DNA from: Minisyncoccota bacterium
Lineage (GTDB): Bacteria > Patescibacteriota > Minisyncoccia > Phycocordibacterales > Phycocordibacteraceae
DNA length: 64,000 nucleotides
NCBI GenBank assembly: GCA_022842945.1
Contig: JALHOO010000002.1
Location: forward strand, 25,030-89,029
Direction of reading: 5' to 3'
Each line of letters opens with the position of its first letter. The first letter of the stretch is position 1. The position numbers and the translations under genes are program-made. The notes below the pieces were generated by a model that saw nothing but the letters and a program-made list of their open reading frames with translations, searched no databases and was not told where the DNA came from. This document shows, one piece after another, positions 3,170 through 26,974 of the stretch.

Positions 3170-3200
3170 TTGTTGCGGGGGCCGGAATCGAACCGGCGTC
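3170..3200 (-). ncRNA. tRNA-like 3' module (T-stem GCCGG / loop TTCGATT / CCGGC, then acceptor strand CCCCGCA + A); no canonical 5' half within 100 nt; part of a ~400-bp ORF-free block
   Basis: Minus-strand read ...GACGCCGGTTCGATTCCGGCCCCCGCAACA. The only upstream match to the acceptor strand is GCGGGG near 3485 and TGCGGGA near 3582. Confidence 0.35.
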
Positions 3201-3571
3201 TGGAGGTTCTTTTACACTTACTGTTTCCAGCAAGAATGGACTATCCCATGATCCTGAACCAGGACCCTCCCATTATAGTCTCTGAACCTTTCCCGAATTA
3301 CTTCGAGACTTGGCTGCTGATTGCCGAATCTCCCTGTTTTTCGCGCATTCACGCTCATCCTTTCGGATCACGTTGTAGCACAAGGAGCTCTAACGGTATT
3401 CCAGCAATTTAGAGAGTTTTTCCACTACCCGTTACCGGATAGGGTCACGTTGTTCACATGAGCCTCCCGAGGTACCTCTCCTCTACCCCGCTATGCATTT
3501 CTTCACACAAGCGCACGAGCGCTATGTCCATAGAATACGCCACATCGCGTCTTTTGCAAGTCCTCTAGAAT

Positions 3572-4173: not shown

Positions 4174-5607
4174 TTATAGCGTCTCTCCCGTCACTTCTGC
4201 GCCCATAGTGAACAATAGGTCGTCAGCACCGTGCGCAGACGTGAAATGTATACCAACCGGAAGAGAAACGCCGTCTCTCTCAACCATTCCCATAGGTACC
4301 GAGATTGCGGGCATGCCGGTGAGGTTTGCGGTAACCGTAAACACGTCTTCAAGATACATAGAAACAGGGTCGCTCTTCTCGCCAAACCTGAATGCCGGAG
4401 ACGGTGTCGTTGGAAACGCAATCACGTCACAGGACCCAAACGCTGCATCATACTCAGCACGAAGTACATCACGCGCCTTATCTGCCTTGCGGTAGTACGC
4501 ATCAATATAGCCAGACGAAAGCACGAAGGTGCCCAAAAGAATACGGCGAATGGTCTCAGACCCGAAGCCTGAAGACTTGCTCTGTACATAGTCCTCAAGG
4601 AGAGACTCTCCGCGCTCTGCTAGCCCATACCGAATACCGTCATAGCGGGCAAGGTTCGCCGAGGCTTCGGCCGGCATAATCACGTAGTACGCAGATAGCG
4701 CATAGCCACTTGTTGGGAGAGATACATCAACGAGAGTGTGGCCCTTTTCGGTAAGAGCGGCAAGAGTGCGCTCAAAGCTCTCTAGCACATCCGCATCCAA
4801 GCCCTCAACGAGAAGATGCCTCGGCACCCCGATGCGAAGAGACTTCCCAACCTCTTTCACAGGATACGTATCGTCTGTAAGCGTAGTGGCATCAAGCGGA
4901 TCATGGCCCTTCATTACGTCATACAGGATCTTTGCGTCCGCAACAGACTTCGCGAGTGGACCAGCCTGATCTAGAGACGACCCAAGCGCAATAAGACCGC
5001 TTCGTGAAATGCGCCCGTAGGTAGGCTTCATACCTACGAGTCCAGTGTGTGCTGCTGGCTGGCGAATGGATCCTCCTGTATCTGTACCAAGAGCCGCGAG
5101 CGCCGTGTGCGCGGAAGCGGCCGCACTTGAACCTCCGGAAGAACCTCCCGGAACACGCGTGACATCTACAGGGTTCTTTGTCGGGCCGTATGCCGAGTGC
5201 TCGGTTGACGAACCCATAGCGAACTCGTCCATGTTGGTGCGTCCTACAAACAGCACTCCCGCTTCTTTCAGTTTCTTCGTAACCGTAGAGTCGTACGTTG
5301 CGGTGTAGTTCGCAAGCATCTTGCTGGCCGCGCTCGCCACATGTCCTTCTATAAGAATGTTGTCCTTCATCGCAAGCGGAATACCGCACAAGAGAGACGC
5401 ATTCTCCCCTTCCGCATCAATGCGTGCCTGAGCTCGCGCAATAGCATCAGCATCTGCAGGAAAGAGCTCAAGGTAAGCGTTCAGCTCAGGGTTTCGCCGT
5501 GCAGCTTCAGCACTACACGCGTCCCACAACTCCTGTACAGAAAAAGTCTTCGACCGCAGTCCTTTTGCGGCCTCAACAATAGTGAGCTCGTTGAGTGGTT
5601 TAGTCAT
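4174..5607 (-). CDS. gatA: Glu-tRNA(Gln)/Asp-tRNA(Asn) amidotransferase subunit A
   Basis: Amidase signature family, 477 aa from the internal Met (MTKPLNELTIVEAAKG). The 38-aa upstream extension in the ORF track is an Arg-rich overlap with gatC, so the start was moved to 5607. Confidence 0.85.
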   Translation of the reverse strand: MTKPLNELTIVEAAKGLRSKTFSVQELWDACSAEAARRNPELNAYLELFPADADAIARAQARIDAEGENASLLCGIPLAMKDNILIEGHVASAASKMLANYTATYDSTVTKKLKEAGVLFVGRTNMDEFAMGSSTEHSAYGPTKNPVDVTRVPGGSSGGSSAAASAHTALAALGTDTGGSIRQPAAHTGLVGMKPTYGRISRSGLIALGSSLDQAGPLAKSVADAKILYDVMKGHDPLDATTLTDDTYPVKEVGKSLRIGVPRHLLVEGLDADVLESFERTLAALTEKGHTLVDVSLPTSGYALSAYYVIMPAEASANLARYDGIRYGLAERGESLLEDYVQSKSSGFGSETIRRILLGTFVLSSGYIDAYYRKADKARDVLRAEYDAAFGSCDVIAFPTTPSPAFRFGEKSDPVSMYLEDVFTVTANLTGMPAISVPMGMVERDGVSLPVGIHFTSAHGADDLLFTMGAEVTGETL

Positions 5608-5902
5608 GGCTGATGATCTGCTTAACGGACAGCGAGTCTCCGCTCTTCTCTGGGAACTGCGCAACAATCTTCTCGGTCCAGGTACCCGATGCATACGGCT
5701 CCGTGTCTTCCCGCAATACATTACGCACTTCGCTCTGTACGCGTCCTGATTCAGGAAGCGTTAGCTCGTCGAGCTTGCCCACATACGCAAGAATGCTATC
5801 AAATTCAGTCGCAAAGCGTGCCAGGTCCGCTTCAGGGACCGTAACGCGAGCAAGACTCGCTAGGCGAGCAACATCTTCCGCTGAGGCTTTTGCAGTACTC
5901 AT
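5600..5902 (-). CDS. gatC: Glu-tRNA(Gln) amidotransferase subunit C
   Basis: 100 aa, GatC-like. 8-nt overlap with the gatA start. Confidence 0.75.
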   Translation of the reverse strand: MSTAKASAEDVARLASLARVTVPEADLARFATEFDSILAYVGKLDELTLPESGRVQSEVRNVLREDTEPYASGTWTEKIVAQFPEKSGDSLSVKQIISHD

Positions 5903-5914
5903 ACAGGCAATCTA

Positions 5915-7954
<2,040 letters not shown>

Positions 7955-7985: not shown

Positions 7986-8447
7986 CTAATAGAAGACTTT
8001 GAGACCTCGCTCAACACGTCGGGGATCTGAAGAGGAGCACGAATTAAAACCGTTTGCGTAGATGTTTGTGACACCCGTCTGGTTCTTAAAGACCTGAACG
8101 GTGCCCTGTGTCCCTCCGGTTGCACACGGGATACTAAATTCAGACGTACGGACACCTCCAGACTGCGAGGTAGTAAATCCCGTAACAGGGGCACCAGCGC
8201 AGCGCACCTCGCCTGCCGCATTTCCCTGGTAGTCATAGCGAAACACGTTCATCTTCTGATCCCAGTAGAGCGCACATTCCATAGCAGAGTCTGCCGCATA
8301 GAACGCATACTGCGACTGCCGAGCTGTTGAGGAGAGGGTTACCTGCTTTAGCGCAATATCCAAAAGCGCGAGACCCACAGACAAAAGTACCGAGGTTAAA
8401 ATCATGGCAACAAGGAGCGTAAAGCCTCTGTGTGGAGTATGCATCAT
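7986..8447 (-). CDS. Pseudopilin/minor pilin-like protein (prepilin N-terminus RGFTLLVAM, lacks Glu5)
   Basis: Class-III signal-like N-terminus followed by a hydrophobic helix. Overlaps the upstream pseudopilin gene by 4 nt. Confidence 0.55.
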   Translation of the reverse strand: MMHTPHRGFTLLVAMILTSVLLSVGLALLDIALKQVTLSSTARQSQYAFYAADSAMECALYWDQKMNVFRYDYQGNAAGEVRCAGAPVTGFTTSQSGGVRTSEFSIPCATGGTQGTVQVFKNQTGVTNIYANGFNSCSSSDPRRVERGLKVFY

Positions 8448-8989
8448 AGCCAGTTGTAGAGACGCTCAGTAATAGTCACACTTCGTGCCTGCCCACGAGA
8501 CGTCCAGCTAACAACAACCGTGAGCATAATCTCAGTACTGGTACTTCCAAGTACCGGTGTGACACGAATGGTGCGTGTGTAGGGTGTCGCTGTTCCGCTA
8601 CCTGCCTGATTGTAGAGATTCCCTGAGCTTAGATAGAGCGGTGGATACGGAGTTGAGGTAACCCTACTAACCGTAAGCTGGGTTGGATCAACCACGCACG
8701 GAGCGGTGACACAGTTTGTAGAGCCTCCCGTGCCATCTACCCCAAACAACCATGAACGACCAGATTGTGTATTCATGAGTACATAGAGGTAGTTGCCGTC
8801 GCGAATACTGCGCACATACTCAACCCCCTCTTGCGCGAGCGAAGACGCGACAAGCTGCTCGCGTGCACTTCTGGACGCATTCAACGACTGCTGTACTGAG
8901 TACAGAGGACCAACCATTGCCGTTACCACCACCGTAACCGCAACGAGGGTCTCTATAAGCGTAAAGCCTTTGTGAGTGCGGTTGATCAT
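8444..8989 (-). CDS. Prepilin-type N-terminal cleavage/methylation domain pseudopilin
   Basis: KGFTLIETLVAV motif. Confidence 0.7.
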   Translation of the reverse strand: MINRTHKGFTLIETLVAVTVVVTAMVGPLYSVQQSLNASRSAREQLVASSLAQEGVEYVRSIRDGNYLYVLMNTQSGRSWLFGVDGTGGSTNCVTAPCVVDPTQLTVSRVTSTPYPPLYLSSGNLYNQAGSGTATPYTRTIRVTPVLGSTSTEIMLTVVVSWTSRGQARSVTITERLYNWL

Positions 8990-9594
8990 AGCTCTATGGC
9001 GCGCTGAGTGGCGCCTGTTTGTATCGAAAAGCTTGAGCTCTCACCTGCATCCGTAACCATAGTACCTGCCACAACAATAGTAACGCTTGGCTGAACAGTG
9101 TCGTTAGTAAGTGGATTACTGTCAGCATCAACACCGCGCACATAGAACCTAAGAGTAGTGATGTCTATTCTTGGATCGGTAAGCGGCACCGCGGTATCTT
9201 CTGTGCAGCTGAGTCCCGTACACTGCCCAATACTTCCATCGTTCTTCAGTATGTACGTGACACGATACTGCGAATCAGCGTCACCATCGCGGCACGTTAT
9301 ACCGTCAGGACAAAAGGATATGGAAGTCCCTCCGCCCACACAGTTCGGAGAACTTGCGTTTCCATTGCAGGCATACTCTCCTCCTGTGCGTATGGCACGT
9401 GCCATGCTCTCAAGAGCAAAGGATAGCGAGGAGGCGAGTTGGCCGTTCGCACGTGCCTGACGGTCAAGACTGATGAGCGTTACGTACGCACCCAGCACCA
9501 CAAGCATAACCATGCTGAATATGCCGAGCGATACAATGAGCTCGAGTAGGGTATATCCTCGTTTTACATTAGTGCGGTTCATTTTGTTGGACAT
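8986..9594 (-). CDS. Prepilin-type pseudopilin
   Basis: RGYTLLELIVSLGIF motif. Confidence 0.7.
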   Translation of the reverse strand: MSNKMNRTNVKRGYTLLELIVSLGIFSMVMLVVLGAYVTLISLDRQARANGQLASSLSFALESMARAIRTGGEYACNGNASSPNCVGGGTSISFCPDGITCRDGDADSQYRVTYILKNDGSIGQCTGLSCTEDTAVPLTDPRIDITTLRFYVRGVDADSNPLTNDTVQPSVTIVVAGTMVTDAGESSSFSIQTGATQRAIEL

Positions 9595-10307
9595 CCTGAT
9601 TCTCCCTCGGACAGTACGGACACCTGCCCTACCTTAGAGACCAGTACACACCGCTCTTCAACACCTCCTGGCGTTGAGACGCGGATAACGGCATTGGTAA
9701 GCACAACAACCGATCCGTTGGTGCGCGTACCGAGTATAACGGACTGCGTATTGGGTCGAAGATACGTTATGTCTATAGCCGAGAGGTAGTTTCCATTACA
9801 GCGTTCAACCCCAGCAGTGTCGTTCCCACAGAACCCACTTACTTTATAGTTGTTGTTCAGTGTATAGGTACGTACAATCTCTGACCCTTGCGTCTGCCTG
9901 CAGTCTCCTGGACGCGCCTCAGGCCCCGTACCCACCGTATGTCCAGGACACACGGATACGTTCTGTATGTTCCCTGTTCTTGTGGGATGCACATCTGCAA
10001 AGAGCACGTAGCTTCCTGCTGGAGCTGCGGCGAAGCGCACTCCGTATCCAGCATTCGTGGTTCCGTCAGTAAAGGCTCGACTTGAAATTCCTAGCGCCTG
10101 CGCTTCACGTATGGAGAACGCGACCGTGTACGCCGTGTCCGTAAGGATAAGACTGCGGTTAAACGAGGACTGCCCCACCAGAGTGATGACGGTAATGATA
10201 ACGATGATGGCGAGCACCACCATCATCTCTACGAGCGTAAACCCTCGAGAACCTTGTCGCACGAGGCGATTAAAGGTTTTTAGAATGTAAGCAGTAAGGG
10301 ATTCCAT
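9579..10307 (-). CDS. Prepilin-type pseudopilin
   Basis: RGFTLVEMMVVLAII motif. Confidence 0.7.
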   Translation of the reverse strand: MESLTAYILKTFNRLVRQGSRGFTLVEMMVVLAIIVIITVITLVGQSSFNRSLILTDTAYTVAFSIREAQALGISSRAFTDGTTNAGYGVRFAAAPAGSYVLFADVHPTRTGNIQNVSVCPGHTVGTGPEARPGDCRQTQGSEIVRTYTLNNNYKVSGFCGNDTAGVERCNGNYLSAIDITYLRPNTQSVILGTRTNGSVVVLTNAVIRVSTPGGVEERCVLVSKVGQVSVLSEGESGCPTK

Positions 10308-11035
10308 TGCGTAACGTAGGCGAGCAGATAGCCGGCCGCGAGAAAAGGCACGAACGGTACTTCAATACCTATTCTATGGCCTTTGGGCGCTCGCACCAAT
10401 ATACCAATGCCAACAACTGCACCTATCCAAAATGAGAACAAGAGTCCTGGAATCGCGAGCGTGCTGCCAACCAGTGTAGCGAGTGCAAACGCAACCGGCG
10501 CGTCCCCGAGCCCCATGGCACGCCCTCCAGAAAACGCATAGAGCAGAAAGAATCCAAGACCTATGAACCCTGCGATCATGAGTGTCGCACCGAGCAGTTG
10601 CACTGCACTTGAGGATAGAAGAGCGTAGAGCACTGCAAAGAGAATGAGAAGCAATGAACTTGCAGGTGGCACGATGGTATGACGCAGATCGTAGAGGACA
10701 ATGAACGTGAGCGTAGTAAGTGCAAGTAGAAATGGTATGAGAGCAAGAGTGAACCCTATCTTTACATAGGCAATCGCAAACAACGTACCGAGCACTGCTT
10801 CGCTTATGGTGTAGGACACGGGCACCTTTGCCTTACAGGTGCGACACCTCCCCCTTGATCCTATCCATGAGAACACCGGCACCAGGTCCAGCGCTGTTAG
10901 TTCCCTGCTACACGAGTTGCATTGAGATCTCCCTTTAATCCAAGACTGCCCCGTATACAAGCGCTCGGCAATAACTGCCATGAAGCTGGCGAGAATGGCA
11001 CCGAGAACAAAGAACGGTATGACGAAAAGATCCAT
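10280..11035 (-). CDS. pilD: Prepilin peptidase (A24 family)
   Basis: Polytopic membrane protein with a CNSC...CRTC zinc-binding tetracysteine, typical of PilD. Confidence 0.8.
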   Translation of the reverse strand: MDLFVIPFFVLGAILASFMAVIAERLYTGQSWIKGRSQCNSCSRELTALDLVPVFSWIGSRGRCRTCKAKVPVSYTISEAVLGTLFAIAYVKIGFTLALIPFLLALTTLTFIVLYDLRHTIVPPASSLLLILFAVLYALLSSSAVQLLGATLMIAGFIGLGFFLLYAFSGGRAMGLGDAPVAFALATLVGSTLAIPGLLFSFWIGAVVGIGILVRAPKGHRIGIEVPFVPFLAAGYLLAYVTQWNPLLLTF

Positions 11036-11074
11036 AATGCTTCTAGTATAACGTCCTTAATAGACATATACGCA

Positions 11075-11102
11075 AAAAGCTCCGACGTGCGGAGCTTTTT
11101 GC
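11075..11102 (-). terminator. Intrinsic terminator after the major pilin gene (GCTCCGCACGTCGGAGC + U-tract)
   Basis: Hairpin AAAAAGCTCCG-ACGTG-CGGAGCTTTTTGCG seen. The U-run is on the minus-strand RNA. Confidence 0.65.
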
Positions 11103-11117
11103 GCTTGTGTGTGCGAA

Positions 11118-11564
11118 CTAGTTCTGTGAAGTACACGTTCCACAGGCCCCTGCGCTCTGTGCGCCAGCCGTACCACACTTCTTGCCGGTTGAGTCAACGC
11201 ACCAGAAGGCTGTTGCCATACCTGAAGGGCGTGTTGAAGAAACAGCGTACGCGCCAGCTGCGCCAGTGCACGATACACCCGTTCCAGTACCGTTTGCATT
11301 CTCTGCAGAAGCAATAGCCTGTACAACAGACGCATCTGAACATACCGTTGCGTAGCTTGGAGACGCTGCACCGTCGTAGACGATCTCTGCCTGTGTTGCG
11401 ATAGAGGCAAGGTTCGACTTGATGGAAGCGTCGTTCCCTCGACTACGCGCCGTATTGAGGGATGCGAGTACGACGGAGGAGAGGATACCGATGATGGCAA
11501 TAACGACGAGGAGCTCGATGAGCGTAAAGCCGCGATCTGCCTTCTTAATGTGTCCGAGTGTCAT
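11118..11564 (-). CDS. pilA: Type IV major pilin (PilA-like) with C-terminal disulfide pairs
   Basis: RGFTLIELLVVIAIIGILSSVVLASLNTAR. Start moved to the internal Met (MTLGHIKKADRGFTL). Confidence 0.8.
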   Translation of the reverse strand: MTLGHIKKADRGFTLIELLVVIAIIGILSSVVLASLNTARSRGNDASIKSNLASIATQAEIVYDGAASPSYATVCSDASVVQAIASAENANGTGTGVSCTGAAGAYAVSSTRPSGMATAFWCVDSTGKKCGTAGAQSAGACGTCTSQN

Positions 11565-11668
11565 AGAGTCTATAAATGAATTAATGCGCATAATGGGTAA
11601 CTATCCGCTTCTCCACATTGTACGCCACCCTTCTCCCTGTCTCGGTGTCCATGGGGATAACGGGTGGT

Positions 11669-12877
11669 TTACGAAATCGAGCCGGCAAGGTTATAGATTG
11701 GAATAAGCACAGACGCAAGCAGGGTTCCCACACCAAGACCAAGGAGCACAATCATCATAGGCTCGATAAGGTCCACAAGGGTATCAACGGCCGTAGTAAC
11801 CTCGCGCTGGTAGAACTTGGCAAGGGTTGTAAGGATGTTCCCAAGCTCTCCGGTCTCCTCACCCACTCGCACCATTGCGGTCATAATGCCGGGAATTTCT
11901 GCATGCTGAGCTAAAGCATCAGAAATAGACGAACCTCCCTTCACCGCCTCCCCCACCTCAAGCAGAATAGTCTCGTAGGTAGCGCTCCCTACAACTGCAC
12001 CTGTTATCTCAACCGCCTCAACAACCGGCACACCCGACACAAGCATCGTTGCAAAGTTGTCCGCAATGCGCGAAAGGTAGAGCTTCTGATATAGATCGCC
12101 CACATAGGGCACCTCAAGCTTAAGCTTGTCGAAGAAGAGTTTTCCTGCCTCTGTCTGCAGAGAGCGATACACAAAGAATGCGCCAACGCCCATAGCAATG
12201 AGAAGAAGGAATCCGTAGTTAACTAAGAAATCAGATGCGGTAATAACTACCTGCGTATAGACCGGTATTGCCTGTCCTGAGTCCTTGAGGATGGAGGCGA
12301 TACGCGGGATAACCATCGTGAGCATGAGACCCATAACCACGAAGAACACACCGATAACGAACGCCGGGTAGATAAGCGCATTCTGCGCCTTCGACATAAC
12401 CTCGTACGTGCGATCGAGGTAATCAGCAAGATATCCAAAGGTCTCTGAAAGACGTCCCGACTCCTCGCCGGATCGCACCATGTTTACATAGAAGCTTGAG
12501 AATACTTTAGGGTGCCTTGAAAGCGCTTTTGAAATAGGACTTCCTCCCTGCAGATCGTCTGCAACCTGCGTCATAACCTCTGCAAGCGTCTTGTTATCAA
12601 CTTCGCTCGCAAGGAGACGGAAGATGCGAAGCGCTGATACTTGGGCCTCGAACAAAGTCGCTATCTGCCGAGAGAGGATAACCACTTCTTTATTCGACAC
12701 ATGCTTAAGGAAACTCAGCTCAACATTGAGAAGCGACTTCTTCTCAATAGGCTCAATGGAAGAAACGATAAGACCACGGCGCTGGAGCGTAGAGACTGCA
12801 ACATCTACCGACAGGGCTTCAACGGTACCTGCCCGTTCATGTCCATCCTTGTCGAGTGCGTGATAGGAAAAAAGCAT
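11669..12877 (-). CDS. pilC: Type IV pilus assembly platform protein (GspF/PilC family)
   Basis: 402 aa, duplicated T2SF domains, 3 TM segments. Confidence 0.85.
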   Translation of the reverse strand: MLFSYHALDKDGHERAGTVEALSVDVAVSTLQRRGLIVSSIEPIEKKSLLNVELSFLKHVSNKEVVILSRQIATLFEAQVSALRIFRLLASEVDNKTLAEVMTQVADDLQGGSPISKALSRHPKVFSSFYVNMVRSGEESGRLSETFGYLADYLDRTYEVMSKAQNALIYPAFVIGVFFVVMGLMLTMVIPRIASILKDSGQAIPVYTQVVITASDFLVNYGFLLLIAMGVGAFFVYRSLQTEAGKLFFDKLKLEVPYVGDLYQKLYLSRIADNFATMLVSGVPVVEAVEITGAVVGSATYETILLEVGEAVKGGSSISDALAQHAEIPGIMTAMVRVGEETGELGNILTTLAKFYQREVTTAVDTLVDLIEPMMIVLLGLGVGTLLASVLIPIYNLAGSIS

Positions 12878-12883
12878 AGGGCG

Positions 12884-13951
12884 TTATAGATACCGCTCGA
12901 AGGTCTTTGGATCGTTCGCACGCTCATACGCGTGCTCGATAGTAACTTCGCCTCGGCGAACAAGCTCCGCGAGAGAGCGGTCCATATCAATCATGCCCTC
13001 CTGGGAACTCGTCTGAATAACCGTTGTTATCTCGTGTGTACGTCCTTCACGAATAAGGTTTGAGACCGCACTGTTGTTTATGAGAAGCTCATACGCAGGC
13101 AACTGGCCTCCTGAGATGCGCGGAATAAGACGCTGGCTGAAGATACCCGCAAGAGACCCTGCAAGCTGCACACGTACCTGGTCCTGCTGGTTTGGCGGGA
13201 ACATGTCGATAATACGATCAATAGTCTGCGCGGCATTGTTGGTGTGAAGTGTAGAAAGCACCAAGTGTCCGGTCTCCGCTGCCGTAACCGCGCTTGAGAT
13301 AGTCTCCTGGTTACGCATCTCCCCCACCATGATTACGTTCACGTCCTCACGGAATGCTGAGTTAAGTGCTGAATGGAAGTCAGGCGTATCAATGTGCACT
13401 TCACGCTGATGAATAAGAGACTTCTTCTGCTCGAAGATGTACTCAACCGGATCCTCGATCGTCACAATATGCTCCGCACGCGTCTCATTAATGCGATCAA
13501 TGATGGTCGCAAGTGTCGTGGACTTTCCCTGCCCCACCGGACCCACAACCAAGAAGAATCCCTGGGACCTCTGACTGAACACTTCGAGGATGGGTGGAAG
13601 GTTCAAGCTCTCAAAGGAACGGATCTGATGCGGAATGAGACGCATGGCGATAGTAACCGCTCCCTGCACCATGTATCCGTTGATACGAAAGCGTGCCTTG
13701 GAAGTATGTGCGTATGAAAAGTCTATAGACTGCTCAGCAGCAAAACGCTCGAATCTACTGGCTGGCGCAATGCTCTTAAGGTACCCAAGAGTGACCTCTG
13801 GAGTGAGTACCGGATGCTGAAGAAGCGGTACGAGTGAACCGGAGATGCGCACAATTGGATTATTCCCTGCTGAAAGATGCAGGTCAGAGCCGCCTTCAGA
13901 CACTACGGTATCAAGCAGTGCTTTAAGTGTTGCATCTATCTGTTCATTCAT
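12884..13951 (-). CDS. pilT: Twitching-motility/retraction ATPase
   Basis: 355 aa. Walker A GPVGQGKSTT. PilT-length secretion ATPase. Confidence 0.8.
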   Translation of the reverse strand: MNEQIDATLKALLDTVVSEGGSDLHLSAGNNPIVRISGSLVPLLQHPVLTPEVTLGYLKSIAPASRFERFAAEQSIDFSYAHTSKARFRINGYMVQGAVTIAMRLIPHQIRSFESLNLPPILEVFSQRSQGFFLVVGPVGQGKSTTLATIIDRINETRAEHIVTIEDPVEYIFEQKKSLIHQREVHIDTPDFHSALNSAFREDVNVIMVGEMRNQETISSAVTAAETGHLVLSTLHTNNAAQTIDRIIDMFPPNQQDQVRVQLAGSLAGIFSQRLIPRISGGQLPAYELLINNSAVSNLIREGRTHEITTVIQTSSQEGMIDMDRSLAELVRRGEVTIEHAYERANDPKTFERYL

Positions 13952-13953
13952 GC

Positions 13954-14337
13954 TTAAGCCTCAATTATCTTTATGGTCTCTGCAAATACTTCGGACGGGA
14001 TAGCGGAAGCCTTGATGATGTAGCCGTGAGCGCCCAGTGCCTTCGCCTGTGCAATATCTGACTCCTGTCCCTGGTTTGAGAGAACAATCTTTTTCATCGC
14101 TCCTCCAAGATTCTCTTTCTTAATCGCTTCGAGAATTTCAAACCCGGTCATTTCGGGCATAACAATGTCTACAAGAAGCGCGTCCGGTGCAGAGTGCTCA
14201 CGGAGTGCTACGAGGAGATCGACGCCACCTGCAAATGCCGTTACCTCGTGCCCTGCCGCCTTGAACTTAACGGCATACATGTCCAACAGGAATCGGTCGT
14301 CATCAACAAGGTAGAGGCGGTAGGGTGCAGTAGGCAT
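13954..14337 (-). CDS. Single-domain CheY-like response regulator embedded between pilB and pilT (PilH/PilG-like)
   Basis: REC domain with DDD...D...K residues. Start moved to the internal Met (MPTAPYRLYLVDDD). Confidence 0.7.
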   Translation of the reverse strand: MPTAPYRLYLVDDDRFLLDMYAVKFKAAGHEVTAFAGGVDLLVALREHSAPDALLVDIVMPEMTGFEILEAIKKENLGGAMKKIVLSNQGQESDIAQAKALGAHGYIIKASAIPSEVFAETIKIIEA

Positions 14338-14344
14338 ACGTGAT

Positions 14345-16099
14345 CTATTTAGGTGCAGTCTCCCCTTCTTCGTCGAGAATGGTCTGGCCACCCAGCGCAT
14401 TCACCTCTTCGAAAGGAATCTGTCCTGCTAACGCTTTAATGATAGCATCCTCGCGCATGGTAAACATGCCCTTGGCGCGAGCGGCCGCATACACCGATTC
14501 CTCTGTAGGAGTGGTGAGCACTACGTGTTCTAGTTCCTTATCCATACGTAGGAACTCAAAGACTGCGAGGCGTCCACGGGTTCCGTTCGGACAGTCAGGG
14601 GTAGCCTGGGCGCTGTAGAACGTATCAAATGCCGGGAGGTTTTGACGATACTCCTCAGGAAGGTCGTTGAACTCACGCGTGAGAAGACCCTTCATACTCT
14701 CTGAAAGAGGCATGGGCTTCCCCGCCCCCGGACAGAGCTTGCGGACCAGTCGCTGACTAATAGCCGCAATGAGGGTTGGTGCAATGAGGTAGGGGTCGAC
14801 ACCCATATCAACCAAGCGAGGAATAACACCCGCGGCGGTGTTGGTGTGGATGGTTGAGAACACGAGGTGCCCGGTAAGCGCAGCCTGGATAGCAAGCTGT
14901 GCGGTCTCTTTGTCGCGAATCTCTCCCACCATAATAATGTCCGGGTCCTGGCGAAGAATAGAGCGGAGGCCCGATGCGAAGGTGTAGCCAATCTCCGGAC
15001 GCACCTGTGATTGCGACACGCCAGCAATCTCATACTCAACCGGATCCTCAACCGACACTACGTTTGCAGATTCCCGATCAAGCTCGGTAAGCATCGAAAA
15101 GAGCGTGGTCGACTTTCCAGAACCTGTAGGTCCCGCAATGAGAATAATGCCGTACGGCTTCTTGATAATCTCTCGCACCTGCGCAAGGTCCGTAGCAGAC
15201 AGACCGATGGTCTCAAGGGTTGCGACTGACTTTGCGCTATCAAGAATACGCATCACCACCTTCTCCCCTCCTTGGGTTGGGAACGTCGATACACGGAAAT
15301 CAATACGGCGCCCCTCAACCGTTGCTGAGAAGCGTCCGTCCTGTGGTTTTCGTTTCTCATCAAGGCGCATCTGCGAAAGAATCTTGATACGCGCCACAAC
15401 CGCAGGGTGCACCTTTGCCGGAAGCTCAAGAGACGTATGGAGCTCTCCATCCATGCGGAAGCGCACGCGTGTTTTCTCAGGCGTTGGCTCTACATGAATA
15501 TCTGAAGCCCCGCCTTCTACCGCGTAGCGTAGTATGGTTGCCACAATCTTTGTAACCGGCGCATCCGCCTTGATGTTGGTCTCCTGCACACCTTCGGCTG
15601 GAGCCGCTTCCTTACCCTCATCAAGATCTACCGGCGCGCCCTCGATTTCAGAGAGTGCCTCACCCACTTCTCCGGAGAGATTCTCGTATTCCTTAAGTAC
15701 ACGATCAAAGTCTGTCTGCGAGATTATGAAAAGCTTGTACGGCATACTCACCCGGCTCGATATGAACTGGAGTGCGTCGAGTGCCTCAATGTTGTCCGGG
15801 TCAAGAATACCTACGGACAGCGCACCGTCTGTTGCCTCTATAGGTACGAAGCCGTAATGCCGCGCGGACTCTTCTGGAATAAAGGAGAGGGTGTGCGTGT
15901 CTGAGAGCTCGGACGGCAGCTTACGATACGGAATCTGGTACTTCTGCGACACCGCCTCGTACGCAGTATCAAGTGCAATCTTGCGCTTCTCGAGCGCCAT
16001 ATCAACCGTTACCCCCTTTGAACGTACCTCTTCCTCAACGCTTGCAGCGTCTTCAGGTGTGAGGATTCCTTTTTCTGTTAGAAGAGCAACGAGATTCAT
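14345..16099 (-). CDS. pilB: Type IV pilus extension ATPase (GspE/PilB family)
   Basis: 584 aa. N-terminal T2SSE_N domain. Walker A GPTGSGKSTT. Confidence 0.85.
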   Translation of the reverse strand: MNLVALLTEKGILTPEDAASVEEEVRSKGVTVDMALEKRKIALDTAYEAVSQKYQIPYRKLPSELSDTHTLSFIPEESARHYGFVPIEATDGALSVGILDPDNIEALDALQFISSRVSMPYKLFIISQTDFDRVLKEYENLSGEVGEALSEIEGAPVDLDEGKEAAPAEGVQETNIKADAPVTKIVATILRYAVEGGASDIHVEPTPEKTRVRFRMDGELHTSLELPAKVHPAVVARIKILSQMRLDEKRKPQDGRFSATVEGRRIDFRVSTFPTQGGEKVVMRILDSAKSVATLETIGLSATDLAQVREIIKKPYGIILIAGPTGSGKSTTLFSMLTELDRESANVVSVEDPVEYEIAGVSQSQVRPEIGYTFASGLRSILRQDPDIIMVGEIRDKETAQLAIQAALTGHLVFSTIHTNTAAGVIPRLVDMGVDPYLIAPTLIAAISQRLVRKLCPGAGKPMPLSESMKGLLTREFNDLPEEYRQNLPAFDTFYSAQATPDCPNGTRGRLAVFEFLRMDKELEHVVLTTPTEESVYAAARAKGMFTMREDAIIKALAGQIPFEEVNALGGQTILDEEGETAPK

Positions 16100-16222
16100 C
16101 TAATGGGAGCCGAAGTTCAAGACCTCGAGATTATAAAACGGTCGATAATATACTGCCCTGCGACCCTGACTTCCCTAAGTGTACTACGTGCACGAACACT
16201 ACACGCAGTGCATGCGGGGAAA

Positions 16223-16528
16223 TCACTCTGCAGCCACACCGGGAAGTGGCGAAAACGGATCCGTACGTCCTTCTACTTCCGGCTGGATAACGGTCTTGAT
16301 GTCTACCAATGCCTCAAAGCGAGGATCGCGGAGTACCGTTACATCGAATGAGATCGAACCAAGCTGTGCGGCAAGCGTGAGGAAGGTAGCTTGTGCCGCG
16401 CTTGAGGCACCCACACTAGTGGTAATAGTGTCTTCAGCATTCGGACGCATCCAAAGGAAGTACGCAATAACACCGAGCACCACAATAGCGGCCGCAATAG
16501 TTATGGAAGTGTTCTTTGAAAGTGCCAT
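16223..16528 (-). CDS. Small single-pass membrane protein in the pilus cluster (possible PilP-analog)
   Basis: 101 aa, one TM helix. Located between pilO and pilB. Confidence 0.35.
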   Translation of the reverse strand: MALSKNTSITIAAAIVVLGVIAYFLWMRPNAEDTITTSVGASSAAQATFLTLAAQLGSISFDVTVLRDPRFEALVDIKTVIQPEVEGRTDPFSPLPGVAAE

Positions 16529-16532
16529 AGAG

Positions 16533-17117
16533 TTATTTGAGCCAGTAAAGACGGAACGTAATGTCGTAGGTGTAAATACCGGTCTGAGAGTCAGTAACGG
16601 AAATCTCTACCACGTCGATATGACGAAGACTGTTCTCAACACCCAGAAGGAATGTCTGGAACGCCGCATAACTACCGGTTGCTGCTACAGAAAGGTCGAG
16701 AGACTCGGTGGGTTCTCCAGCACTCAGCGCAAGCGCACCACTACCCCCTCCTCCAAGTGGCGCCGTGCCCTGGGTGCTAGAGGCCTCAGTGTTGCTTTCA
16801 ATACTAAACTCGGACAGCTGTACTCCTGAGCGCGCCGCAAGCGAGTTCAGGTCAACAATGAGTCTAACGTTGTCTACGTTATCTGGAAGAAACGACTCGA
16901 GACGTATGATCTGTTCGTCCGTAATAGCAGCGCGATCACGTGTAAGCTGAATCTCTTTCTCCTTGAAGTCTGTGGCGGCCGCAAGCGCCGTATCAAGGTC
17001 TCGTATCTCTGTCGTGAGATCAACAATAGAACCGCTATACGTAGGCTGCACATACCCAATAAAGAGGCCGGCAGCGCCGATAATCATGAGGAGCGGGATG
17101 ATGCGAGTGAATATCAT
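16533..17117 (-). CDS. pilO: Type IV pilus biogenesis protein PilO-like
   Basis: N-terminal TM plus coiled coil and PilO-like periplasmic domain. 4-nt overlap with pilN. Confidence 0.6.
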   Translation of the reverse strand: MIFTRIIPLLMIIGAAGLFIGYVQPTYSGSIVDLTTEIRDLDTALAAATDFKEKEIQLTRDRAAITDEQIIRLESFLPDNVDNVRLIVDLNSLAARSGVQLSEFSIESNTEASSTQGTAPLGGGGSGALALSAGEPTESLDLSVAATGSYAAFQTFLLGVENSLRHIDVVEISVTDSQTGIYTYDITFRLYWLK

Positions 17118-17836
17118 GGTTGTGGAGTGCTAGTGGCACGCGTACTTGAGGCAGTGGTTGTGCCGGGTGTCGTTGCTGGCTGCAGATTTGGAGCCACGGG
17201 CTCGTTCACAACAGGAGGGGGTACTGTACCTGAAGACGGCTCAGAAATACCAGGGAACGCTTCTGCTGAGGTAATGAGTCTCGGGTCCAGAGTTGCCGTC
17301 ACCGAGAATCCAACGGTGCCATTTGTGTTTACTGAAATGTCAGAAAAGATTGCACTCTTGATGCGCTTCTCACTTGCTATAGCGGTGGTCTGCGCCGCAA
17401 GCGCATTAAAGCTACGGGCAACACCCTCCATAGTCACTTCTGCGGAACGGTCTTCGTTTACCGAAAGCGAAAGCGTATTGAAACGAACGGTCTGCAAAGT
17501 CTTTGCTTCAAGGACCGTAAAGAACTTTGTAAGCTCGATGTGATCGTTCAGCATTCGCTCCACCTCAACTAGGCGGTTCTTAAGTCGAATGAAACCTTCC
17601 ACCACATCAAGGTTAACTGATCGCTGTGCCTGAAGGAGTTCTGCAGACTTCGCATCGCGTGCACTCTTCAGGTAGAGTTCGTACCCAAAGACTCCAGCCG
17701 CAACAAGTGCACTAATACCCGCAACGGCAATAGCAATCAAAAGAAGCACGCTACGTCCGCTCTTTTGAGAACGTGCGTGCGTTGATACCGGTTGTTTTGG
17801 TACGAACGAGGTTGGAATGGTCGGAGGTAATGCCAC
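17114..17836 (-). CDS. pilN: Type IV pilus biogenesis protein PilN-like
   Basis: Single TM then coiled-coil region. Operon position between pilM and pilO. Confidence 0.6.
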   Translation of the reverse strand: MALPPTIPTSFVPKQPVSTHARSQKSGRSVLLLIAIAVAGISALVAAGVFGYELYLKSARDAKSAELLQAQRSVNLDVVEGFIRLKNRLVEVERMLNDHIELTKFFTVLEAKTLQTVRFNTLSLSVNEDRSAEVTMEGVARSFNALAAQTTAIASEKRIKSAIFSDISVNTNGTVGFSVTATLDPRLITSAEAFPGISEPSSGTVPPPVVNEPVAPNLQPATTPGTTTASSTRATSTPQP

Positions 17837-17904
17837 AGTGGTGTTAAGTATACGGGAGAATGTGCGCTATAGAGGCTTCTTATGCACAGAGACCATGAAG
17901 ATGC

Positions 17905-18993
17905 CTACTCCTCTTCTTCAAGCTTGCGCAGTGCAAGACCTACCGCAACCGCGAACTCTGGACCAATAGCCTGCAGTACCGGACGCATGAACTCAGGAGC
18001 CTGTGTCTTGCTGAAAGGATCGGCGACACGCACATCTACAGAGAAGAATCCCTTTGCGTACGCCTCGAGCTCTTTGGTTACGCCCCCTCCCCCCGTAAGA
18101 ACCAAGCAGGAGACTTTCGCATTCTTCGCCATTTCATACTGCGTAAGCGCACGCTTCGCCTCTTCAAAGATGCGCGAGAACACGAGCTCAATAGAACGAT
18201 GGTCGTAGGTCCCTGCTTCCTGCGTAAAGCCATGCGCTTTCTTAAGGGTCTCAGCATCTCCCACCGTAATACCTTGTGAGGTGGCGATGGTGCGTGTCAC
18301 GTCCTGCCCGCCACTTGGAATGTTGTGCGAGAACGCAACCACGCCGTGCTCAACCACATACACCTTCGTAGCACTTGCACCAATATCAAGGACAAGCACT
18401 GGCTTAACCGGCTCATCAACTACAGAACGAATGGTGCTGAATATCTCAATCTCATAGAAGGTTGCCGAAAGCTCGGACCCTCGTACCACACCCTCAAGCA
18501 AAGAGAGCTCGTCGTTATGCACGGCCACAAGCAGCACCTGCACCTTAGGAGGAGGTGCTGCTCCTTCAGGAATAGCTTCCGGAAGAATAAACCAGTCGAG
18601 CTGCACCTCCGTTACGGGTACGGGAATATACTTTCTCGCCTCGAGCTCAATTACCGTCTTTTGCTCCTCCGGACTATCTCTCCGAGGAAGCTCAACGAGT
18701 GTAAGTAGAGTACGAGAGAACGGGATAGAAATCCCCGCGTCTTTCGTAGTTACATTAGCTTCACGTAGGAGGTCGTTGAGTGTCTCTGCAATCTTTGCCG
18801 CAGGAAGATTGGTTGCCTGTCCCACCTCAACGCCCGCGTACGGACCCAGGGCGAGCTCGCCATAGGTCTCAAGCACCGCAGTGCCTCCCTGGCGACGCAG
18901 CTGCACCACTTTCAAAGACGAGGAGCCTATGTCCACGCCGATTACGCTCTTCGACTTCTTTGTGTCACCGAAAAGTTTTGTGAGGAACCCCAT
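17905..18993 (-). CDS. pilM: Type IV pilus assembly ATPase-like actin-fold protein
   Basis: VIGVDIGSSSLKVVQL actin-like N-terminus. 362 aa. Confidence 0.8.
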   Translation of the reverse strand: MGFLTKLFGDTKKSKSVIGVDIGSSSLKVVQLRRQGGTAVLETYGELALGPYAGVEVGQATNLPAAKIAETLNDLLREANVTTKDAGISIPFSRTLLTLVELPRRDSPEEQKTVIELEARKYIPVPVTEVQLDWFILPEAIPEGAAPPPKVQVLLVAVHNDELSLLEGVVRGSELSATFYEIEIFSTIRSVVDEPVKPVLVLDIGASATKVYVVEHGVVAFSHNIPSGGQDVTRTIATSQGITVGDAETLKKAHGFTQEAGTYDHRSIELVFSRIFEEAKRALTQYEMAKNAKVSCLVLTGGGGVTKELEAYAKGFFSVDVRVADPFSKTQAPEFMRPVLQAIGPEFAVAVGLALRKLEEEE

Positions 18994-19015
18994 AACGGGA
19001 TTGTATCATGCAGGC

Positions 19016-19642
19016 ATGAAGCTCCTCCGTGCATTGTTTACGCTATTGTTCCCAGAGCGCCCCTCGGAAACTATCGTTGCGGATCTCACCCCTGAATCCC
19101 TAGGCACCCTCGCAGAACCTACGCAAGGAGAAAGGAACATCGTCTCCCTTCTCCCCTATCGCGCACCTCTCGTGAGAGCGTGCATACGCGAAGCTAAGTT
19201 CCATGCAAACCCAAAGGCATGGACGCTCCTAGGGAGCATACTTGCGGACTATGTACGGGAACTAGAGTCTGATTGGAATACGTTCGAAGACCACCAGATT
19301 ATTCTTGTTCCTATACCTCTTTCTAGAAGGCGTATGAAAGATCGAGGATATAACCAGGTGGAGCGGATTGCAGAGAGTGCTCGCACCTCATACGCACACC
19401 TTCGCATTAAGAATACTCTTCTGGTGCGCGTGCGAGATACCCTTCCCCAGACCGGCCTTAGGGGTCATGCAAGGAGACACAATCTTAAGGGTGCTTTTGA
19501 GGTGCACGGTGCACTCAACTCTACACATACCTATATAGTGTTAGACGACGTAACCACCACCGGCACAACCCTCGCCACTGCCTGTAGGACCCTTGTTTCA
19601 TCTGGCGCCATCCGTGTTTTAGGCCTTTCATTGGCGCATTAG
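19016..19642 (+). CDS. comFC: ComF family phosphoribosyltransferase-domain competence protein
   Basis: YIVLDDVTTTGTTL PRTase motif. Divergent from pilM. Confidence 0.7.
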   Translation: MKLLRALFTLLFPERPSETIVADLTPESLGTLAEPTQGERNIVSLLPYRAPLVRACIREAKFHANPKAWTLLGSILADYVRELESDWNTFEDHQIILVPIPLSRRRMKDRGYNQVERIAESARTSYAHLRIKNTLLVRVRDTLPQTGLRGHARRHNLKGAFEVHGALNSTHTYIVLDDVTTTGTTLATACRTLVSSGAIRVLGLSLAH

Positions 19643-26897: not shown

Positions 26898-26974
26898 GCA
26901 CCCTTAGCTCAGTTGGTTAGAGCACCTAGCTTATACCTAGGCGGTCCTTGGTTCGAGTCCAAGAGGGTGCACCA
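26898..26974 (+). tRNA. tRNA with anticodon loop CTTATAC (anticodon UAU), a candidate tRNA-Ile2(UAU) reading AUA
   Basis: Hand-folded cloverleaf: acceptor GCACCCT/AGGGTGC (7/7 Watson-Crick), D-stem GCTC/GAGC, anticodon stem CCTAG/CTAGG, T-arm CTTGG-TTCGAGT-CCAAG, encoded CCA. Confidence 0.7.

Follow-up and report, generated by a model that had tools for sequence, protein, structure and literature searches.

A stand-alone receiver gene between pilB and pilT as a lineage-wide feature of the secretin-less type IV pilus cluster of Parcubacteria and a candidate regulator of its motors

In the bacteria of the Candidate Phyla Radiation (CPR; Patescibacteria), host attachment, movement and DNA uptake are considered to depend largely on type IV pili. 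Here we describe a 64-kb stretch of a Minisyncoccota genome (contig JALHOO010000002.1, positions 25,030 to 89,029; GC content ~53%; the whole of this stretch is referred to below as the window), in which the gene of a single-domain receiver protein (REC) lies between the genes encoding the extension ATPase PilB and the retraction ATPase PilT of a type IV pilus cluster. Genes were called on the basis of open reading frames (ORFs) together with matches to Pfam and NCBIfam. The minus strand carries 14 closely spaced genes between positions 7986 and 18993, most of which are identified by these family matches, and they are accompanied by a putative terminator and by a divergent ComF-like gene:

7986 to 8447, minus strand: minor pilin 4, PilX-like (PilX_N, E 7.5e-5, just under its cut-off)
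8444 to 8989, minus strand: minor pilin 3 (N_methyl, E 6e-5)
8986 to 9594, minus strand: minor pilin 2 (N_methyl, E 9e-7)
9579 to 10307, minus strand: minor pilin 1 (N_methyl, E 1.4e-7)
10280 to 11035, minus strand: prepilin peptidase PilD (A24_N_bact, E 9e-25, and Peptidase_A24, E 1e-7)
11071 to 11103: hairpin with a perfect 14-bp stem and a T-run, terminator- or attenuator-like
11118 to 11591, minus strand: major pilin PilA, class III signal peptide G/FTLIELL (N_methyl, E 6e-10; TIGR02532, E 5e-10)
11669 to 12877, minus strand: platform protein PilC (T2SSF, E 2.7e-55, two repeats)
12884 to 13951, minus strand: retraction ATPase PilT (TIGR01420, 423 bits against a cut-off of 319)
13954 to 14337, minus strand: receiver (REC), 127 amino acids, single domain (Response_reg, E 1.6e-17)
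14345 to 16099, minus strand: extension ATPase PilB (T2SSE, E 8e-119; MshEN, the N-domain, E 1.4e-14; TIGR02538, E 1.5e-145, under the equivalog cut-off)
16223 to 16528, minus strand: small membrane protein, 101 amino acids, no family match
16533 to 17117, minus strand: PilO-like alignment protein (PilO, E 1.4e-4, borderline at 22.5 bits against a cut-off of 22)
17114 to 17836, minus strand: PilN-like alignment protein (PilN, E 0.0075, 16.7 bits, below the cut-off of 22.8)
17905 to 18993, minus strand: PilM, actin-like ATPase fold (PilM_2, E 3.6e-42)
19016 to 19642, plus strand: ComF/ComFC-like protein of the phosphoribosyltransferase fold, divergent from pilM, in an ORF that is open from 18881

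An earlier, sequence-only reading of the same DNA had named these genes, and all of them were recovered at their places, be it that PilO is a borderline and PilN a weak match. The PilN assignment is mainly positional, i.e. the place of the gene after pilM is conserved, and gene order and topology fit a PilM/PilN/PilO complex. The fourth minor pilin has a processing site (GFTLL) that lacks the Glu at position +5 and a syntenic homologue in the related locus L004, and the PilT sequence includes the Walker A motif GPVGQGKST and the motif AVSNLIRE. The receiver starts at the ATG at 14337, not at 14400, and its product matches a database protein (P0001) exactly.

A scan of one genome per species recovered REC in 294 genomes, the best 80 of which, all species genomes of Paceibacteria/Parcubacteria, were fetched for a comparison of synteny. 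Among these best 80 of the 294, the order pilB-REC-pilT is present wherever the contig allows it to be seen, and the shared gene order reads comF (on the opposite strand), pilM, pilN, pilO, small protein, pilB, REC, pilT, pilC, pilA, pilD and minor pilins; REC is the only receiver of each locus, and a partner regulator does not lie nearby. The close homologues of REC and of the locus are labelled as Patescibacteria, Paceibacterota, Parcubacteria, Kaiserbacteria, Nomurabacteria, Taylorbacteria and Campbellbacteria metagenome-assembled genomes (MAGs), and these labels assign the window to a CPR bacterium of the Parcubacteria/Paceibacteria type. When 1.84 billion cluster representatives were searched with a profile, many further single-domain relatives (132-140 amino acids) were retrieved that keep the signature DDDxFLLDMY..KF, D-x-VMP, SNQGQ and GYIxKAxxIPSEV. 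A second profile search gave no fewer than 2,752 clusters (E <= 1e-20), for which 'response regulator', 'CheY-like' and 'hypothetical' are the only annotations. The seven distant single-domain relatives that were looked up (45-51% identity, on contigs with a GC content of 34-48%) all sit between PilB-type and PilT-type genes where the contig allows this to be judged. The placement of the receiver, which had been called unusual on the basis of the window, is instead a rule of the lineage (80/80 fetched species genomes and 7/7 distant relatives): pilB-REC-pilT is an ancestral and near-universal arrangement and no oddity of a single genome.

The receiver domain spans essentially the entire 127 amino acids of the protein, which has no output domain. 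Its AlphaFold 2 (AF2) model is a confident (beta-alpha)5 fold of five strand-helix units (predicted local distance difference test score, pLDDT, 88.5), for which the best solved structures retrieved by Foldseek are the stand-alone receivers RR468 and CheY4 (TM 0.87/0.91, ~30% identity). Its sequence is that of a receiver of the generic kind (E ~1e-15 to both CheY and Spo0A-N), and the searches of NCBIfam and PDB returned no specific family, only matches of the Spo0A-N, PhoB, CheY and RR468 type. The residues D12, D13, D14, D57, Y106 and K109 are invariant and position 87, a Ser in the window protein, is Ser or Thr in 79 sequences; the pocket residues are likewise kept in a set of 21 sequences and in 27 more divergent ones (39-56% identity). 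Near-invariance extends to helix alpha1 (RFLLDMY.VKF), to the beta4-alpha4 region (SNQGQESD) and to the beta5-alpha5 region (GYIIKASAIPSEV); in two-component proteins the first is the kinase-docking face and the other two form the output face. Because the phospho-acceptor pocket, alpha1, beta4-alpha4 and beta5-alpha5 are all conserved, the sequences argue for a protein that would act as a working, phosphorylatable switch with conserved partners.

That the gene arose by chance, is a remnant in decay or was annotated in error is a reading for which only its small size speaks. We give this reading practically no chance, and it is refuted by the Pfam match (E 1.6e-17), the confident AF2 fold, the more than 2,600 clusters of homologues of the same length and the rates of change, with a proportion of nonsynonymous differences (pN) of 0.18 against a saturated synonymous proportion (pS) of ~0.80 and a ratio of nonsynonymous to synonymous rates (dN/dS) of ~0.08 where computable, similar to the values for PilB and PilT. 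The sequence-only reading had put forward truncation of the gene in relatives as an outcome that would speak against it; in the relatives the gene is intact, with its catalytic residues invariant.

The junctions of REC with its two neighbours are tight. The window has 7 nt between pilB and REC, as had been read from the sequence before, and 2 nt between REC and pilT, where 3 had been given. Across the related loci the pilB-REC gap mostly lies between -4 and +32 nt and the stop codon of REC overlaps the start of pilT by 4 nt in 64 of the 78 loci, and such tight or overlapping junctions suggest that the genes may be translationally coupled. Inserts of more than 300 nt were found in neither junction (pilB-REC 0/80, REC-pilT 0/77); in the same cluster they occur between pilT and pilC (8/70) and between pilC and pilA (12/63). 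The conservation of the protein points in a similar direction, as the median identity to the window amounts to 73% for REC, to 72% for PilB, 75% for PilM, 79% for PilC and 81% for PilT, and to 48% for PilN, 46% for PilO and 48% for PilA, i.e. REC is conserved at the level of the cytoplasmic machine parts and the envelope parts score far lower; the value for the ComF-like protein is 43%. Covariation of evolutionary rates was evaluated with partial Mantel tests on residual distances (five genes, 52 taxa), in which REC has the same correlation (r 0.27) with PilB (p 0.001) and with PilT (p 0.002), a result that is suggestive only, and shows no covariation with PilM (r 0.07) or PilC (r -0.14).

These data bear on the reading in which REC is an ordinary two-component element, either a phosphate sink or a branch with some other target, that resides in the pilus operon merely for co-expression. 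Single-domain receivers such as PilH have indeed been proposed to act as phosphate sinks (PMC11656802), and REC has the generic similarity and the lack of a specific family model that one would associate with such an element. We nevertheless judge this reading quite improbable, since the position flanked by pilB and pilT is fixed across species whereas other junctions of the cluster accept inserts, since there is a single REC per locus without a partner regulator near it, and since the rates of REC covary with those of PilB and PilT and not with those of PilM or PilC.

Some variations on the gene order and the receiver family were noted in passing. The inserts between pilT and pilC measure 0.5-3 kb (L048, 6393-8044; L068, 6443-8305; and L059, L060, L066, L070, L077 and L082), with pilB-REC-pilT intact; the two that were judged by eye hold unrelated cargo, namely genes for a membrane protein with multiple passes and for an ATPase that has two nucleotide-binding motifs. 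In the Campbellbacteria-type locus L086, pilM and pilN are separated by a member (2323-2706) of PF05635, the family of the '23S rRNA intervening sequence protein'. Many tandem REC-REC proteins of 250-290 amino acids (P0126-P0135 and others) bear the CPR-type signature LSN.xQ and GYLxKA..TP and score near the single-domain family in the search of representatives.

From the observed gene content, synteny, conservation, intact phospho-site and fold we infer phosphorylation, binding partners and an effect on the motors, and we lean towards the view that a phosphorylation-gated, output-less REC binds PilB and/or PilT and so sets extension versus retraction. REC would be produced together with PilB and PilT and would be phosphorylated on Asp57, the phosphate coming either from a kinase whose gene lies elsewhere or from a small-molecule phosphodonor. 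Phosphorylation would then switch the alpha4-beta5-alpha5 face, and in one of its two states REC would bind PilB and/or PilT and alter the ATPase activity of the motors or the access that they have to the PilM/PilC platform; the balance between extension and retraction that is set in this way would in turn govern attachment, twitching or DNA uptake. Direct phospho-control of the two ATPases, which the sequence-only reading had taken to be implied by the gene order, is a proposal that draws on that order, on the tight junctions, on conservation and on a weak covariation of rates.

Several observations weigh against this mechanism. Gene adjacency by itself does not single out the target of REC, the covariation test is weak (a run with seven genes and 21 taxa was erratic even for known partners), and among ten multi-domain relatives there is no REC-PilB or REC-PilT fusion, only combinations with REC, Hpt and similar domains. 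Moreover, a cognate histidine kinase or chemosensory genes, for which the earlier reading had recommended a search, were not found in the window or in the 89 related loci: ORFs of at least 80 amino acids in these 857 kb were searched with a home-made hidden Markov model of HisKA plus HATPase_c (built on five hybrid kinases) and, for the CheA core, with phmmer, and neither the 64-kb window nor the ~790 kb of related loci yielded a histidine kinase, CheA or Hpt. Pfam searches on 20 further window ORFs (201-748 amino acids) gave housekeeping genes only and no chemosensory domains, and no kinase was present in the 10 kb that could be reached via the exact S7 protein of the window on a contig from another sample, the downstream gene order of which differs from that of the window. 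About 19% of CPR MAGs have been reported to lack any kinase, with an average of 0.29 kinases per 100 genes (PMC10805038); because CPR MAGs carry so few kinases, and 19% of them none, a distant cognate kinase for REC is plausible but not certain.

Some of these observations lend weight to the main rival explanation, in which REC belongs to the motor constitutively, as a structural or adaptor subunit that works independently of phosphorylation, e.g. by tethering PilB and PilT to PilM/PilC or by aiding hexamer assembly, and in which the receiver fold is used for its shape only. No kinase is linked to any of the ~90 loci and CPR genomes hold very few kinases or none, REC is made in step with PilT via overlapping stop and start codons, its conservation resembles that of a machine subunit, and the REC domains of FimX, which lack the acceptor Asp, still serve in pilus localisation (review PMC11656802). 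The complete preservation of the active site speaks against this explanation, which we hold to be unlikely: D12, D13, D57, S/T87 and K109 as well as the switch residue Y106 are kept over a deep divergence, whereas pseudo-receivers usually lose such residues, and the helix alpha1 that would dock a kinase is near-invariant as well.

A phosphorylation-gated control of the motors by REC would not stand on its own among the known systems. In function, DrdR of Xanthomonas campestris comes closest to the proposed mechanism, as this output-less protein binds PilB as well as PilT and stimulates the ATPases of the two; unlike REC, it has two receiver domains, one of which is degenerate, and it is encoded by an orphan gene in a diderm species with a Pil-Chp system (PMC13507683). 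EmvR of Xanthomonas oryzae shares with REC the single-domain, output-less architecture and a phosphorylatable Asp, and it binds PilB directly and represses its ATPase activity (PMC11973254); its gene, in contrast, is an orphan that lies apart from pilB and pilT, the kinase of EmvR (ColS) is known, and the likeness to REC is one of architecture. PilG and PilH of the Pseudomonas Pil-Chp system are also CheY-like single-domain regulators; they control the polar recruitment of PilB and the balance between extension and retraction, without a direct binding of PilB having been reported (PMC11656802), and they are encoded with a chemosensory cluster (the methyl-accepting chemotaxis protein PilJ, the CheW protein PilI and the CheA protein ChpA). 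A system of the PilG/PilH type was rejected for the window, as the Pfam-scanned window ORFs contain no chemosensory domain and the related loci no CheA-type kinase. The PATAN-REC regulators of Synechocystis (PixG, PixE and others) are reported to interact with the pilus motor to steer motility (10.1101/2021.06.11.447907; PMC11181946); they have an additional PATAN domain and belong to chemotaxis-like Tax systems, whereas REC is a bare receiver. The resemblance to CheY4 and to RR468 of Thermotoga maritima (PDB 3DGE and others) is one at the level of the fold only, and RR468 is paired with the adjacent kinase HK853, a counterpart of which was not found at the window locus.

The cluster itself is not new. 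A secretin-less pilus/competence cluster has been published for the CPR (Meheust 2019, PMC6744442), in which PilB, PilT, PilC, PilM, PilN, PilO and PilD are co-localised, PilQ is lacking and genes for DNA uptake are linked, much as in the window; its description includes neither a receiver nor the small membrane protein with a GRxDPF motif, both of which are conserved in the Parcubacteria version. Locus one of the Saccharibacteria strain TM7x, which was shown by experiment to make pili, likewise has no secretin and encodes PilB1, PilT, PilC1, PilM1N1O1, PilD and five pilins, yet no response regulator is listed for it (PMC11623550 / PMC12206443), and the REC family of the window carries labels of the Parcubacteria type only. 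The comparison with published CPR loci that the sequence-only reading had called for thus leads to a known cluster and to a receiver gene that goes unmentioned in it; among the full texts searched there is no description of a receiver gene inside a CPR pilus operon. What appears to be new is the embedded, lineage-wide REC, within the established theme that single-domain receivers control type IV pilus motors.

With regard to the type of pilus, the locus is a complete type IVa-like cluster without a secretin, as is standard for Parcubacteria (GTDB class Paceibacteria). A Secretin domain was not found in the Pfam-scanned window ORFs of at least 240 amino acids, and the gene tables of the related loci L004, L086 and L091 list no secretin; the remaining scanned ORFs of the window encode housekeeping functions (ribosomal proteins, SecY, EF-Tu, EF-G, FtsH, RecG and others). 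The earlier description of the locus as a secretin-less CPR pilus cluster is borne out by this result and agrees with the reported absence of PilQ from the CPR (Meheust 2019, PMC6744442).

Two features of the PilB sequence (14345-16099) deserve mention beside its role as a candidate target. Many PilB/GspE ATPases carry a four-cysteine zinc site, and PilB of the window has two cysteines only in the corresponding region. Its extreme N-terminus (NLVALLTEKGILTPEDAASVEEEV) presumably resembles the MshEN motif for binding cyclic di-GMP without matching it; judging from this sequence, control of PilB by cyclic di-GMP could perhaps have been replaced by control through REC.

The small membrane protein encoded upstream of pilB (16223-16528) has an N-terminal transmembrane helix and a C-terminal, invariant GRxDPF motif. 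Homologues were collected from 74 related loci and, where detected, they always lie between pilO and pilB, and neither a profile search of PDB, nor NCBIfam, nor Pfam scans of 16 members gave a match. In the AF2 model, which has a low confidence (predicted TM-score, pTM, 0.26), the transmembrane helix is accompanied by short helices, two or three in number, and by a C-terminal tail that is disordered. Our guess is that the protein is a stand-in for PilP, i.e. a membrane-anchored, disordered binder of PilN and PilO from which the secretin-binding domain is missing (cf. PMC5805733).

For the ComF-like gene, the comparison with a homologue of 196 amino acids in L004 makes 19016 the most likely start, from which it would encode 208 amino acids. 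The matches of the protein to TIGR00201 (E 5e-21; 75 bits against a cut-off of 234) and to GntX (E 6e-23) are both far under the curated cut-offs, a Pfam scan at E <= 0.01 gave no match, and the Pfam family Pribosyltran is a weak match in the L004 homologue and is not marked in that of L086. The defining feature of ComFC is an N-terminal zinc finger of four cysteines, and the 208 amino acids contain two isolated cysteines and no CxxC pair, so that the protein lacks this finger. The gene is nonetheless the divergent neighbour of pilM in 60 of the 61 related loci with enough flank, and it is found also in the distant locus L086. Because of this neighbourhood the conserved pairing of the ComF-like gene and pilM supports a functional tie to transformation, which is in line with the role in DNA uptake that had been proposed for the pilus before; by analogy with Saccharibacteria, the pilus could also serve in attachment and twitching. 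If translation indeed begins at 19016, the start codons of the ComF-like gene and of pilM (18993) are only ~22 nt apart, and therefore both promoters would lie within the neighbouring coding regions.

The 11-kb array may be expressed as more than one transcript, i.e. from at least two transcription units, because a strong hairpin with a T-run (11071-11103) follows directly after the stop codon of pilA, 35 nt ahead of pilD. As a terminator or attenuator, this hairpin would permit an expression of the major pilin above that of PilD and the minor pilins. At a distance of 40 nt from the last pilin gene the array is followed by housekeeping genes:

5915 to 7945, minus strand: NAD-dependent DNA ligase LigA (Pfam), a neighbour and not a part of the pilus
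5600 to 5902: gatC, downstream of ligA
4174 to 5721: gatA, downstream of gatC

The ligA gene occupies the same position in L004 and L005, and on a metagenomic contig of 608 kb the synteny with the window extends through ligA-gatCA; it is a housekeeping neighbour that should not be over-read.

Elsewhere in the window, two tRNA genes are out of the ordinary. On the minus strand (3173-3491) a group I intron (3217-3448; Rfam RF00028, 67 bits) apparently interrupts the anticodon loop of a gene for tRNA-Met/fMet(CAU), which was missed by ARAGORN and the exons of which read GCGGGGTAGAGGAGAGGTACCTCGGGAGGCTCAT ... CCTCCAGACGCCGGTTCGATTCCGGCCCCCGCA. On the plus strand (26898-26974) lies a gene for tRNA-Ile with the anticodon UAU (TAT in the gene), a tRNA that is uncommon in bacteria, where AUA is usually read by a lysidine-modified CAU tRNA.

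Taken as a candidate for pilus control in a very large, uncultured lineage, the receiver between the extension and the retraction motor genes is concrete and testable, and it is conserved in 294 or more Parcubacteria genomes at the species level as well as in thousands of protein clusters from metagenomes. Its motifs (DDDxFLLDMY, SNQGQ and GYIxKAxxIPSEV) together with the order pilB-REC-pilT provide a simple marker of this type of pilus. The proposal extends the action of output-less receivers on PilB and PilT from Xanthomonas, and the link would here be ancestral and fixed in an operon, as opposed to one made by an orphan gene. A more specific form of it, which we put forward as a possibility and regard as doubtful, is that REC acts as a stoichiometric, phosphorylation-gated 'clutch' by which PilB and PilT are engaged in turn at the one PilM/PilC platform; of the one or two two-component systems that such tiny genomes keep, one would have REC as its main output. 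If true, contact with a host or with DNA would be converted directly into extension or retraction, and REC would represent the most compact link known between a signal and a pilus motor and offer a handle on the control of attachment in CPR episymbionts.

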